Origin: an uncultured bacterium
GTDB taxonomy: Bacteria > Auribacterota > JACPWU01
Direction of reading: 5' to 3'
Length of the DNA stretch: 11,366 nt
NCBI GenBank assembly: GCA_964640155.1
Contig: CAZXEQ010000011.1
Location: 1 to 11,366 of the forward strand
In this document: in pieces, positions 3,887-4,205 of the stretch
Layout of the letters: each line of letters begins with the position of its first letter
Numbering within the stretch: the stretch's first letter is position 1
Translations under genes and position numbers: made by a program
Notes under the pieces: generated by a model
Told to the model about the DNA's origin: nothing
The model's database searches: none
The model's input: the letters and a program-made list of their open reading frames with translations, nothing else

Positions 3887-4205
3887 CCCCGCGTGTTGGC
3901 TCTTCGAGCCATCGGCCACTTTGAGCATGCAAAGTTTTTAGATAGATCCAAATCCCCTTCTCCTTTCCTTCCCCCTTCGCCCCGACATCACGATGTCGTG
4001 TCTACCCCTATTCTTTTCTCAACACCCCAAGTTGTGCACCCTCTTTTTTGGGTCCCTCCTCGGACCTCCCAAAAAAGAGGGTGTAAGGTATGCGTGATTG
4101 AAGAAGGGGGAAGGAAAGGAGAGTTATGGGAGGCGATAGAGCAGGGCAAAGCAAGTGATGGCATTAAAACAACGTGGCCGAGTTCGCTTCGCTCACCACG
4201 CGGGG
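3887..4205. other. Structured domain A: nested long-range inverted repeats (candidate structured RNA or folded-DNA element), function unknown
   Basis: Perfect complementary pairs: 3887-3895 ccccgcgtg with 4197-4205 cacgcgggg; 3912-3919 tcggccac with 4174-4181 gtggccga; 3959-3978 tctcctttccttcccccttc with 4103-4122 gaagggggaaggaaaggaga (20 bp, all pyrimidine against all purine). Local hairpins: 3898-3910 (ggctc-ttc-gagcc), 3983-3998 (cgacat-cacg-atgtcg), 4037-4083 (16-bp stem caccctcttttttggg / cccaaaaaagagggtg). Confidence 0.6.

Follow-up and report, generated by a model that had tools for sequence, protein, structure and literature searches.

The only large non-coding region of a small bacterial plasmid carries a region here termed Domain A, with a core of about 165 nt (3959-4122), which is a conserved cis-acting nucleic-acid structure rather than a gene. 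Its core comprises three related tracts residing on one strand: a pyrimidine arm (Y), a mirror copy of this arm (H) located in a loop, and a purine arm (R). The two arms form a 20-bp stem, and the new feature reported here is the third tract (4001-4020) within the loop of that stem. All three tracts are retained in five modules, in which they change together, and they could fold into a triple helix of 17-26 steps. Judging from these patterns, Domain A probably functions as a replication barrier or landmark, and we assign a probability of roughly one in three to the reading that it would be a structure-based polar barrier to polymerases. A more specific version of this proposal, in which a selected intramolecular DNA triple helix of 17-26 triads would serve as a protein-independent polar fork barrier beside Xer-type sites, is offered more tentatively.

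The window, by which we mean the whole stretch of 11,366 nucleotides that was analysed, is a circular 11.3-kb plasmid assigned to environmental Chlamydiota, and an identical plasmid (~11 kb) is present in six data sets; samples that contain it include SRR19881398, DRR784965, DRR784962, SRR8893624 and SRR31893870. Its sole replication protein unites a DnaG-type primase with an MCM-like AAA+ helicase and ends in a winged helix, and the plasmid further encodes two XerC/D-like recombinases, an RstR-like repressor and a BrnT/BrnA pair. Because all genes lie on the + strand with the single exception of an HTH gene, they diverge at 5247-5530 and converge on a non-coding block of ~1 kb, which is kept in related plasmids. 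The outermost helix of Domain A begins 21 nt, and its Y arm 94 nt, past the stop codon of ORF3, in ORF3 sense. The features of the block are listed below, with the strand given where one was assigned.

3886-3898: 5′ arm of outer helix 1, pairing with 4194-4206; missing in the closest relative, L001.
3912-3923: 5′ arm of outer helix 2, pairing with 4170-4181; missing in L001.
3959-3978: Y arm, the all-pyrimidine side of the 20-bp Watson-Crick stem.
3984-3997: small fold-back hairpin GACATC-AC-GATGTC between the Y arm and the third tract; present in the minimum-energy fold.
4001-4020: third tract (H), a mirror copy of the Y arm.
4022-4027: CACCCC, a conserved end of the third tract; a weak feature recognized by eye.
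4037-4083: 16-bp hairpin, CACCCTCTTTTTTGGG...CCCAAAAAAGAGGGTG, within the long connecting loop.
4103-4122: R arm, the all-purine side of the 20-bp stem; identical in L001.
4123-4160: purine-rich stretch 3′ of the R arm; near-identical in L001.
4170-4181: 3′ arm of outer helix 2, ACGTGGCCGA; retained in L001.
4194-4206: 3′ arm of outer helix 1, CACGCGGGG; retained in L001.
4245-4409: middle domain, an AT-rich stretch closed by helix 4255-4269 / 4385-4399.
4445-4638, + strand: Domain B, a multi-hairpin fold closed by a 13-bp helix (4445-4457 / 4626-4638).
4510-4535, + strand: P1 hairpin, TTTACCATAAT-GGAG-ATTATGGTAAA, with a stem like the XerD arm of dif.
4564-4581, + strand: P2 hairpin or palindrome, GGATAAGTCGACTTATCC; relatives have (T)CGCATAA...TTATGCG(A), which resembles the XerC arm of dif.
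4646-4841: Domain C, what is left of the gene-free block as far as the HTH stop codon.

The first-pass annotation had described this block as free of genes, and that description holds. No ORF inside the block has a Pfam match, and a 109-aa ORF (3893-4222) has no counterpart of at least 80 aa on that strand in L001, with the window-L001 alignment over this ORF containing gaps whose lengths are not multiples of three. A coding reading of the block was rejected on these grounds, as was a short ORF behind an AAGGAG at 4115, whose ATG is lost in L001. Intrinsic terminators, defined as a G+C-rich stem-loop followed by a T-run, were not found on the + strand between 3500 and 5900 (the 16-bp hairpin has its T and A runs within the stem), nor was a canonical terminator found between the convergent genes and the block. 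The only promoter-like site upstream of Domain B (4410-4438) was discarded because it is not kept in L001, and an iteron-type origin, in which tandem direct repeats adjoin an AT-rich stretch, was rejected because neither the block nor 5200-5560 contains tandem repeats; the only direct repeats are weak and in two copies. A cmscan of the whole window against Rfam at E <= 1, which covers ENE-type elements, RNase P, tmRNA, 6S, group I/II introns, GOLLD, ROOL, HEARO and OLE, returned nothing real, in agreement with the earlier view that no known RNA family is recognizable. The sole match, to mir-3914, scored 24 bits against a gathering score of 97 and fell on both strands of the 16-bp hairpin.

The stem-loops of Domain A are far beyond chance. 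The 20-bp, 16-bp, 6-bp and two outer helices were all found where the first-pass annotation had placed them. The Y and R arms are 100% complementary over 20 nt (TCTCCTTTCCTTCCCCCTTC / GAAGGGGGAAGGAAAGGAGA), a repeat with E = 2e-6 in a self-comparison of the 1.1-kb region, and the arms of the larger hairpin (4037-4052 / 4068-4083) are 100% complementary over 16 nt, while the outer helices reach 92% complementarity over 13 nt (helix 1, with 10 bp perfect) and 12 nt (helix 2). Folding of 3880-4210 yields -140.3 kcal/mol for the + strand (z = -7.2) and -143.8 kcal/mol for the - strand (z = -7.7), values reached by no shuffle; the corresponding figures for the whole block are -359 (z = -7.2) and -326 kcal/mol (z = -6.3). 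Related plasmids bear out the claim that such complementarity does not arise by chance, as the core is kept in them by compensatory change. The 16-bp hairpin exhibits two compensatory changes in L001 and is retained in copy 1 of the two modules of L015 and in L016, although it is gone in L015 copy 2, and a fold-back hairpin occupies the same site in 5/5 modules with a different sequence in each. This support from related contigs does not extend to the two outer helices, of which L001 keeps the right arms and lacks the left, and the idea that the three nested long-range helices form one conserved unit is not supported. L015 possesses its own 13-bp outer helix, with the core GGCCAC/GTGGCC as in outer helix 2.

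The sequence of the third tract is that of a third strand parallel to the R arm, with T for A and C for G. Taking the five modules, which come from four plasmids, in the order window, L001, L015 copy 1, L015 copy 2 and L016, the third tract obeys the parallel third-strand code set by the R arm of the same module at 14/20, 16/19, 14/17, 15/19 and 20/26 positions (within-tract shuffling p = 0.057, <5e-5, 1.5e-4, 0.027 and 0.0025), the window being the weakest of the five. The mirror match is better than a direct or inverted copy in 5/5 modules. The possibility that the third tract is an alternative Watson-Crick partner of the R arm was rejected, as the antiparallel match falls below the parallel one, again in 5/5 modules. 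Over the 17 aligned positions, the Y and R arms pair in 95% of cells, with 9/17 positions altered on both sides. Between third tract and R arm, 88% of cells fit (T opposite G counted as fit) and 7/17 positions are altered on both sides; 0/500 shuffles reached the result in either comparison. The fit between third tract and R arm drops to 56-70% in slid registers, indicating that the register is specific, and the third tracts of L001, L015 copy 1 and L016 fit their own R arms better than those of other lineages. Stems are perfect within each lineage despite their differing sequences, apart from two C.A mismatches in L016, and the Y arm of L001 has decayed to 12 bp, a point against the proposed structure. 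Pooled R-arm:third-tract letters (G:C 44, G:T 9, A:T 36, A:C 2) are associated with a Fisher p = 1.6e-14, for cells that are not phylogenetically independent. Independent changes are few, because the five modules derive from only four plasmids and represent two old paralogous types. An automatic MAFFT/RNAalifold alignment of four modules misaligned the low-complexity arms, and anchored registers were used instead. The conserved CACCCC may extend the triple register onto the GGG(G) 3′ of the R arm and the CCCC 5′ of the Y arm. An earlier remark that the homopurine/homopyrimidine arm could form a triplex thus gains a mirror tract that co-varies with both arms; the formation of the triplex itself we infer from sequence.

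The positions at which the third tract deviates, the G-runs and the perfect stems lead us to lean toward a purine-motif DNA triplex over RNA. In the third tracts, each of the 12 A's faces an A and no A faces a G (p = 8e-5); on the opposite strand these positions would form T.A-T triads, which are tolerated in H-r triplexes (PMC11667243). With T.A-T included, the purine-motif rule fits 17/20, 20/20, 16/17, 17/20 and 22/26 positions (window, L001, L015 copies 1 and 2, L016), whereas T opposite G, seen in nine cells, fits neither triplex motif and counts against a triplex. G-runs favour H-r at neutral pH with Mg2+, H-y requires low pH, and purine-motif triplexes do not form in RNA (PMC4666352; PMC11667243). 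The two C.A mismatches in the L016 stem are located on the Y-H-R strand and correspond to G.T on the other, which favours the opposite strand. Against DNA folding of that strand, the Y-H-R strand is favoured by two wobble extensions evident in the sequence itself, T3958-G4123 and G4036-T4084, and by a T.G pair in the copy 1 hairpin of L015. The extensions in the window had been taken as weak support for a + strand RNA in Domain A, a preference that is not sustained when the A-opposite-A positions, the G-runs, the L016 C.A mismatches and the perfect stems are set against them; a + strand preference is clear only for Domain B. The folding energy difference favours the strand opposite Y-H-R in 5/5 modules, but may only reflect G.U options in purine-rich loops and was given little weight, and the sliding-window comparison of folding energy between the two strands of the block is noisy, tracks G+T content and was not used.

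In the mechanism we propose, Domain A would act as DNA. Unwinding of the region would permit the bottom strand, which carries purines opposite 3959-3978 and 4001-4020 and pyrimidines opposite 4103-4122, to fold up as an intrastrand triplex of the purine-motif (H-r) type. Y and R would pair as the 20-bp Watson-Crick stem and the mirror tract would occupy its major groove as the third strand, with the small hairpin providing the fold-back and the long loop that holds the 16-bp hairpin providing the return. Polymerases would be unable to read through such a triplex. Preformed triplexes are known to halt polymerases at the triplex edge, and H-motifs stall plasmid forks, most of all when the purine-rich strand is the lagging-strand template (PMC11667243). 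For a fork travelling from the HTH/primase side toward the cargo genes, the purine mirror repeat would be on the lagging-strand template, and Domain A would consequently be a protein-free polar barrier to that fork; the purine-rich non-template arm may also block read-through transcription. Situated at the sole convergence point of the plasmid genes and beside the dif-like hairpins, a barrier of this kind would represent a structure-based terminus. By the same lagging-strand rule, the two modules of L015, which lie in inverted orientation around the AT-rich centre of its block, would have the layout of a fork trap, although the barrier reading fails for L015 if the origin is the AT-rich middle of the block. 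Tus-Ter and RTP-Ter are inverted polar barriers placed around the zone where forks meet, with a Xer site nearby, and are protein-DNA complexes. In function only, the L015 layout and the position of the window module between convergent genes fit this arrangement, whereas the barrier proposed for Domain A implies no protein. We know of no natural replication terminus that consists of DNA structure alone.

Every module with a known upstream flank is in Y-H-R sense just downstream of a gene, an orientation that is also predicted by an RNA element and to that extent counts against the barrier reading. Besides the window module, which follows the ORF3 stop codon at 21/94 nt, L015 copy 2 and the L016 module lie downstream of the HTH gene, in sense. 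A Y-H-R transcript from the upstream gene might contain a 3′-UTR element in which a pyrimidine-motif triple helix clamps the purine tract in the manner of an ENE, and which would shield the 3′ end against exonucleases, end transcription at the purine arm, or do both; on the sequence patterns, we regard this as an appreciable, if tentative, possibility. The lack of a canonical terminator between the convergent genes and the block is consistent with such an element, as are the wobble extensions on the + strand and, in three modules, a break in the third-tract C-run where it faces GGGGG, which would lessen the burden of neighbouring C+. RNA can form pyrimidine-type intrastrand triplexes (PMC4666352), and the layout of the module, with a hairpin between two pyrimidine strands and a purine tract further downstream, recalls the MALAT1 ENE, a 3′-terminal transcript structure whose downstream purine tract is clamped by the two pyrimidine strands on either side of a hairpin (PMC6379651). 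However, the eukaryotic and viral ENE/MALAT1 structures use U.A-U triples with at most one C+.G-C, comprise no more than 10 triples and employ the 5′ strand as the Hoogsteen strand, and natural RNA triplexes are short, with ten triples being exceptional (PMC6379651). Here the purine tract is G-rich and 17-26 positions long, and, compared with MALAT1, the 5′ and 3′ pyrimidine strands exchange roles, such that a long parallel-connecting loop would be needed. C+.G-C would make up over half of the triads, with runs of 3-5 among them, which is unfavourable at neutral pH, the 12 A's opposite A would be mismatches in the pyrimidine motif, the two L016 C.A mismatches would disrupt both pair and triad on the Y-H-R strand, and there is no Rfam match. 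Perfect RNA stems of 17-26 bp, such as those of the modules, would be expected to serve as substrates of RNase III. Alternatively, Domain A might be one domain of a ~1-kb + strand RNA with a function of its own, which we consider improbable. The whole block folds far better than shuffles and is more stable as the + strand; in Domain B, 14 of 72 pairs are compensatory relative to L001 and all one-sided changes yield G.U on the + strand, and the P1/P2 region folds better on the + strand in 5/5 plasmids. Folded single-stranded DNA also tolerates G.T wobbles, however, and such an RNA would be without a conserved promoter, the sole site upstream of Domain B being lost in L001, and without an Rfam match at E <= 1 save the spurious miRNA on both strands. 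Moreover, modules that occur in both orientations in the single block of L015 cannot all be sense in one transcript, the self-complementary centres of the two palindromes are not required by an RNA loop, and the stems of P1 and P2 resemble DNA recombinase binding arms.

The module is absent in L008, L010 and L011, which carry the same primase (47-55% identity) and keep only P1/P2. This argues against a family-wide replication requirement, and absence from distant members that have the primase is expected of an accessory element rather than an origin. The L016 module lies beside an HTH gene, and there is no primase gene on the recovered 2.5 kb. We therefore consider it rather doubtful that Domain A is part of a replication origin in which, by analogy with other plasmids, melting of AT-rich DNA next to it would allow the unwound strand to take up a hairpin or triplex fold recognized by the primase-helicase as a loading or priming signal. 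Consistent with an origin, the block is the only large non-coding region and has a centre of 61-67% A+T, and the sole replication protein combines primase, helicase and winged helix. The stem-loop of plasmid pRN1 (21-nt stem, 58-nt loop) is needed for replication, is kept in structure and not in sequence, and has been proposed as an assembly site for a primase-helicase-winged-helix protein (PMC4234260). Domain A likewise has a long stem and a large loop, resides on a small plasmid and is conserved in structure and not in sequence. The pRN1 protein, though, joins an archaeo-eukaryotic primase to an SF3 helicase rather than a DnaG-type primase to an MCM-like helicase, no triplex tract has been described for pRN1, and the module studied here is missing from most of its plasmid family. 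RSF1010 (IncQ) has two inverted hairpin sites on opposite strands, ssiA and ssiB, which are used by the plasmid primase and are active only on unwound single strands (PMC8567376) and recall the two inverted L015 modules around the AT-rich centre. Each site is 40 nt in length and combines a short hairpin with a defined 5′ hexamer, and their primase, RepB′, is of the Pri type (PMC8567376); they have no sequence resemblance to Domain A and no purine/pyrimidine tract. An origin would leave the third co-varying tract without a reason, the divergent promoter region at 5247-5530 is a second candidate origin, and the strand asymmetry of folding energy is too closely tied to G+T content, and too noisy, to help. 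It is very improbable that Domain A is accessory or architectural DNA for the XerC/D-like recombinases, serving, by analogy with CTX phage attP and integron attC, as part of a resolution or integration site in the form of folded single-stranded DNA. The plasmid does encode two XerC/D-like recombinases and an RstR-like repressor, dif-like hairpins occur 400-450 bp from Domain A in the same block, and L015, which has a different single recombinase, is without P1/P2. Yet Domain A has no dif-like sequence, most plasmids with the recombinase pair lack the module, and L015, which lacks both the pair and P1/P2, has the module twice. We attach similarly little credence to a selfish or neutral palindromic repeat (MITE/REP/BoxC-like) whose arms template switching would hold identical. 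Such switching from one arm of an inverted repeat to the other can imitate compensatory change, and the module is found at two positions, in two orientations, and twice in L015. BoxC-type intrastrand triplex repeats, which are multi-copy with no known function, also speak for this reading (PMC4666352). The mirror tract nonetheless follows the arms, and we know of no copying mechanism that produces or maintains a mirror repeat. In addition, the modules occupy orthologous sites despite their diverged sequences, and no copies outside the block were found in the 558 kb of fetched loci.

The triplex predicted for Domain A has its nearest counterparts in the intrastrand triplex motifs of bacteria, known as PIT elements, BoxC or TM-ECO (Hoyne et al. 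2000, Holder et al. 2015; PMC4666352). As in Domain A, these intergenic bacterial motifs place homopyrimidine, homopurine and (reverse-)Hoogsteen tracts on one DNA strand, with the complementary strand bearing the other triplex motif. They differ in the order of the tracts, which is Y, third, R in Domain A and RH-R-Y, Y-R-RH, R-Y-H or H-Y-R in classes I-IV (PMC4666352), in the number of triads (17-26 in Domain A-type modules, against an ITxF search range of 6-15) and in their loops, which are 1-6 nt in the known motifs and 20-85 nt and structured in the modules (22 and 82 nt in the window). The unprecedented order, for which one long loop is necessary, counts against the triplex reading. Under the ITxF definition, three blocks are present at 3959-3978, 4001-4020 and 4103-4122, and likewise in all five modules; where that definition allows at most one mismatch, the window matches the pyrimidine code at 14/20 and the purine code at 17/20 positions and only L001 reaches 20/20, and neither the class I-IV orders nor loops of 1-6 nt are observed. 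The modules are single- or double-copy at a fixed plasmid position, and the evidence for them is three-way co-variation, not copy number as in the known motifs. Domain A also partly resembles H-DNA, in that 3959-3978 and 4001-4020 form a pyrimidine/purine mirror repeat, imperfect in the window, whose triad code is C.G*G, T.A*A, T.A*T or T.A*T, C.G*C+, and H-DNA stalls forks in an orientation-dependent manner (PMC11667243). Here the Y arm is 100% pyrimidine and the mirror tract 17/20 pyrimidine with 14/20 positions in mirror register, and the 22-nt spacer exceeds that of classical H-motifs. Unlike in H-DNA, the halves of the modules are split by a spacer of 22-57 nt with a hairpin of its own, and the inverted copy at 4103-4122 allows a single strand to supply all three strands.

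Whether bacterial intramolecular triplexes, including H-DNA and intrastrand motifs, have a selected function is a decades-old question. To our knowledge, the known bacterial triplex motifs have been inferred from their abundance and linked only to genome instability. Co-variation of three tracts according to a triad code is the type of evidence that established RNA secondary structures, now extended to a third strand. If the triplex reading is true, Domain A would be rare evolutionary evidence of bacterial selection for a triple helix, and a selected DNA triplex of this kind would provide the first evidence from evolution for bacterial selection of triplex DNA and be the longest natural triplex known. 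If the barrier reading is true, it would represent a new way to end or polarize replication without a Tus- or RTP-like protein. The small size of the element, together with natural variants usable as compensatory mutants, makes the question directly testable.

Within 558 kb of fetched DNA, a pyrimidine run of at least 12 nt with a perfect purine inverted copy no more than 400 nt away was found in this clade only. BLAST of the window and of the block in near and distant modes matched no PLSDB plasmid, exact block patterns had no matches in IMG/VR, and the primase relatives in IMG/VR comprised four distant loci, all without the module. A hairpin-pattern search recovered 36 unrelated loci, 0 of which had a flanking pyrimidine/purine repeat. 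The sole match of a metagenome scan (L012) is located inside an ORF of a high-GC contig and was rejected as chance.

Between Domain A and Domain B, the AT-rich stretch of the middle domain spans ~4270-4385. Within Domain B, P1 consists of two XerD-like arms, as judged against a published dif sequence (PMC3025954), and P2 of two XerC-like arms, with a spacer of 3-11 nt among plasmids. This arrangement departs from the dif/Xer core, which is defined by a XerC arm, a 6-8-bp centre and a XerD arm at fixed spacing; a normal C-arm/D-arm site was seen only in a distant locus, L063. The centres of the two palindromes are self-complementary, being TCGA in the window and GCGC in L001 and L013.

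The helices that the first-pass annotation had described in Domain A (3886-4206), the first part of the gene-free block at 3866-4841, were borne out in every detail, including two G-T extensions:

3959-3978 with 4103-4122: perfect 20-bp stem, pyrimidine-only (Y arm) against purine-only (R arm)
3984-3997: 6-bp hairpin
4037-4083: perfect 16-bp hairpin
3886-3898 with 4194-4206, and 3912-3923 with 4170-4181: outer helices

Folding of 3880-4210 gave z = -7.2 for the + strand and -7.7 for the - strand, and the 20-bp repeat had E = 2e-6 in a comparison within the region. Consistent with its description as gene-free, the block contains ORFs that have neither a family match nor conservation, and cmscan against Rfam, a check proposed in the same annotation, found nothing.

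Approximately 900 nt of the block align with the related locus L001 at 64-77% identity, similar to the primase gene at the DNA level, and the 16-bp hairpin carries two compensatory changes there (C-G to T-A and T-A to A-T). The core also occurs in L015 (HTH protein 67% identical), in two copies of opposite orientation, and in L016 (HTH protein 71% identical). Its arms vary by lineage yet pair in each (17, 19-20 and 24/26 bp), with pairing reduced to 12 bp in L001. In the 17 positions that could be aligned among the five modules, 95% of cells are paired and nine positions have changed on both sides; none of 500 shuffles did as well, and slid registers gave 59-76%. As conserved pairs, the outer helices did not hold up, since L001 keeps the right-arm sequences and lacks the left arms; L015 has an outer helix of its own (13 bp) with the same GGCCAC/GTGGCC core. 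The L015 block (5212-6116, - strand reading) contains perfect, nested inverted repeats of 24, 20, 17, 16 and 13 bp, at most 320 nt apart, whose sequences, the two triplex-type modules excepted, bear no relation to the window's. Directly 3′ of the R arm, the purine-rich segment 4123-4160 is near-identical in L001 and better conserved than the Y arm, and no pairing partner accounts for it.

All five modules carry, inside the loop, a pyrimidine-rich third tract (4001-4020 in the window, CTACCCCTATTCTTTTCTCA) that repeats the pyrimidine arm in mirror image and is neither a direct nor an inverted copy of the arms. Read 5′ to 3′ beside the R arm, it places T at A and C at G, the pattern expected of a third strand that runs parallel to a duplex's purine strand. 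The mirror match exceeds the direct and antiparallel matches in every module, the window's own tract being the weakest of the five.

Match of each third tract to its own R arm (p values from shuffling within the tract)
Window: 14/20, p = 0.057
L001: 16/19, p <5e-5
L015 copy 1: 14/17, p = 1.5e-4
L015 copy 2: 15/19, p = 0.027
L016: 20/26, p = 0.0025

Pooled R arm:third tract letters are G:C 44, G:T 9, A:T 36 and A:C 2 (Fisher p = 1.6e-14, for cells that are not phylogenetically independent); the nine cells with T opposite G are not accounted for by a triplex. For a co-variation test the tract was reversed in writing, which turns the parallel register into a nested one. In this form 88% of cells fit the R arm, counting T opposite G as a fit, and 7 of 17 positions are altered on both sides, a result equaled by none of 500 shuffles; slid registers reached 56-70%, with 0-4 such positions. 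In L001, L015 copy 1 and L016, the tract agrees better with the R arm of its own module than with the R arms of other lineages. The sample comprises five modules from four plasmids and two old paralogous types. Because no replication or repair process is known to us that would generate the mirror image of a sequence, we read the joint change of the three tracts as selection for a three-stranded contact. In every module a small hairpin, differing in sequence per lineage, separates the pyrimidine arm from the mirror tract and would serve as the fold-back, and the long loop, which holds a T6GGG/CCCA6 hairpin in four of the five, would provide the return path demanded by parallel strand order.

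On the folding molecule and its strand the evidence is divided: five observations favor DNA and the strand complementary to the one with the pyrimidine-mirror-purine order (the bottom strand in the window), and three favor the sense strand. All 12 mirror-tract A residues lie opposite an R-arm A and none opposite a G (p = 8e-5); on the complementary strand each becomes a T facing an A-T pair, a triad that the antiparallel purine motif allows, and T.A*T is "well tolerated" by purine-motif (H-r) DNA (PMC11667243). Under the purine-motif rule, the fit is 17/20 in the window, 20/20 in L001, 16/17 and 17/20 in L015 copies 1 and 2, and 22/26 in L016. The R arms are 41-55% G, with a G5 run in four modules, so that a pyrimidine motif would require runs of protonated C; an H-r triplex forms at neutral pH with Mg2+ (PMC11667243). 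In RNA, triplexes of the purine motif reportedly do not form (PMC4666352). The sole mismatches in a well-defined stem, two C.A in L016, are G.T wobbles on the other strand, with the G.G contact retained. Stems are perfect in each lineage, which was also counted towards DNA. Three features point to the sense strand, possibly as RNA: it carries the window's G-T extensions and, in the L015 copy 1 hairpin, a T.G pair; in three modules the mirror tract interrupts the C-run that faces GGGGG; and every module with a known upstream flank lies in sense shortly 3′ of a gene, which is ORF3 in the window and the HTH gene in the case of L015 copy 2 and L016. Folding-energy asymmetry gave no information on strand choice.

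An RNA triple helix of the ENE kind at a 3′ end, or a transcription stop, would match this sense orientation and the clamp-like layout, which is similar to that of the MALAT1 ENE, whose triplex of just ten triples is nevertheless termed exceptionally long (PMC6379651). We consider this possible but doubtful, as the purine tract is G-rich, the A exceptions do not fit and the strand roles are swapped. The closest described elements are the bacterial intrastrand triplex motifs (PIT/BoxC/TM-ECO) and H-DNA, which have the three-tract principle and triad code in common with the module; the module is much longer and departs from the formal ITxF definition in the order of its tracts, the length of its loops and the number of mismatches.

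The ends of the 11,366-base window share a 19-nt direct repeat, indicating a circular replicon of ~11.35 kb, in which the + strand carries all genes but one:

3-2912, 2909-3553 and 3560-3865, + strand: three genes of unknown function
4842-5246, - strand: XRE-type HTH gene, nearest family the RstR repressor
+ strand: gene for a DUF5659-like protein
5793-8363, + strand: replication protein, 856 aa
+ strand: two tyrosine recombinases, scoring as XerC/XerD relatives
+ strand: BrnT/BrnA toxin-antitoxin pair

The genes thus diverge from 5247-5530, which contains two predicted TTGACA promoters, and converge on the block. The replication protein combines a CHC2 zinc finger and DnaG-type Toprim primase core with a C-terminal half that had no match in PDB or Pfam by sequence search and whose structure model (mean pLDDT 81.8) resembles MCM-type AAA+ helicases and finishes with a winged-helix-like domain. 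Its relatives number in the hundreds, on 4-12-kb contigs of many phyla, with some within megabase contigs. For the HTH regulator, the best-scoring family is the RstR repressor of CTX-type phages (70 bits, where the cut-off is 80), and the CTX RS region, like the window, has a structured non-coding region downstream of the 3′ end of its rstR-type gene. ORF1 probably starts near 11126 and reads through the circular junction (11126-11366 joined to 1-2912), an extension that would give the protein an N terminus resembling a signal peptide. A GHSQGG serine-hydrolase-like motif lies in the C-terminal part of ORF1, and the corresponding cargo position in relatives is occupied by RHS/YD-repeat toxin genes.

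Domain B (4445-4638; 716-906 in L001) has a multi-hairpin fold with a 13-bp closing helix. Among 72 predicted pairs compared between the window and L001, 14 have changed on both sides and still pair, none is broken, and the one-sided changes are all G.U on the + strand; in the closing helix, four successive pairs are inverted (CACC/GGTG to GGTG/CACC). The dif-like hairpins P1 and P2 were located as follows:

Window: 4510-4535 and 4564-4581
L001: 777-802 and 829-848
L008: 147-171 and 211-234
L010: about 6462-6486 and 6561-6582
L011: 1530-1552 and 1608-1648
L013: both, in the part aligned to window 4505-4646
L060: P1 only

The order of these palindromes is constant among the more distant plasmids too, where primase identity falls as low as 47%. 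The P1 stem, GTTGACATAA / TTATGTCAAC (TTATGTTAAA in L001), resembles the XerD arm of E. coli dif, and the P2 stem, CGCATAA / TTATGCG, the XerC arm; their loops or spacers, which vary between 3 and 11 nt, argue for hairpin behavior rather than core sites of fixed spacing. Both hairpins are missing from L015, whose single recombinase is a different one. A distant primase relative, the IMG/VR contig L063, has a conventional dif-like site at 1614-1648, GTGCGCATAAT-CCCCCGC-ATTATGTTGAAT, with one XerC-type and one XerD-type arm, whereas the palindromes in the family of the window are D-D and C-C.

In plasmids, DNA polymerases and forks stall at H-motifs, with the strongest effect when the lagging strand is templated by the purine-rich strand, and polymerases were stopped at the edge of preformed triplexes (PMC11667243). 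The window has its purine mirror repeat (opposite 3959-3978 and 4001-4020) on the bottom strand, which a fork traveling from the HTH/primase side toward the cargo genes uses as lagging-strand template. Once unwound, this strand alone could furnish all three strands, with the pyrimidine partner opposite 4103-4122. Two inverted modules flank the block center in L015, a layout that, by the lagging-strand rule, would allow a fork to enter and block its exit. Our preferred reading, at a probability of roughly 0.35, is that Domain A might be a structure-based polar barrier fixing the end of replication beside the dif-like hairpins. The sequences themselves establish the tracts, the way these co-vary and how they are oriented; that a triplex forms, which molecule folds and the role as a barrier are inferred. 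As hPu/hPy tracts can block transcription, the barrier may also halt read-through transcription at the purine-rich non-template arm.

An origin or priming signal has good precedents in pRN1 and RSF1010, the pRN1 stem-loop origin being alike in form and genetic context, and would be consistent with the AT-rich middle of the block. It leaves the third tract without explanation and most of the plasmid family without a module; since L008, L010 and L011, more distant plasmids with the same replication protein, lack it, an accessory element fits better, and we regard an origin as unlikely. A stand-alone 1-kb ncRNA, supported mainly by Domain B, is improbable given modules in both orientations and palindromes with self-complementary centers, and we attach very little weight either to a Xer accessory site or to a selfish repeat. 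Within the block, an AT-rich stretch (4245-4409, 61-67% A+T) lies inside a helix, AGTCAGGGACTCG / CGAGTCACTGAC, that is also found in L001, and is a candidate unwinding element if the block contains an origin.

No description of this plasmid family or element turned up in the literature searched. The plasmid's closest relatives, L001 (primase 72% identical), L016 and L010, are small contigs of Chlamydiae/Chlamydiota MAGs. L016 (1-2471) carries the HTH gene with a triplex-type module downstream and a DUF6788 gene upstream in place of the DUF5659/primase genes, a gene order suggesting that the module has accompanied the HTH gene onto a different backbone. The same plasmid was recovered from five other sequencing runs as Logan contigs (SRR19881398, DRR784965, SRR8893624, DRR784962 and SRR31893870), which are 100% identical where they overlap 3501-5300, block included; three of these contigs terminate within the block, at positions corresponding to 4439, 4514 and 4758 of the window.
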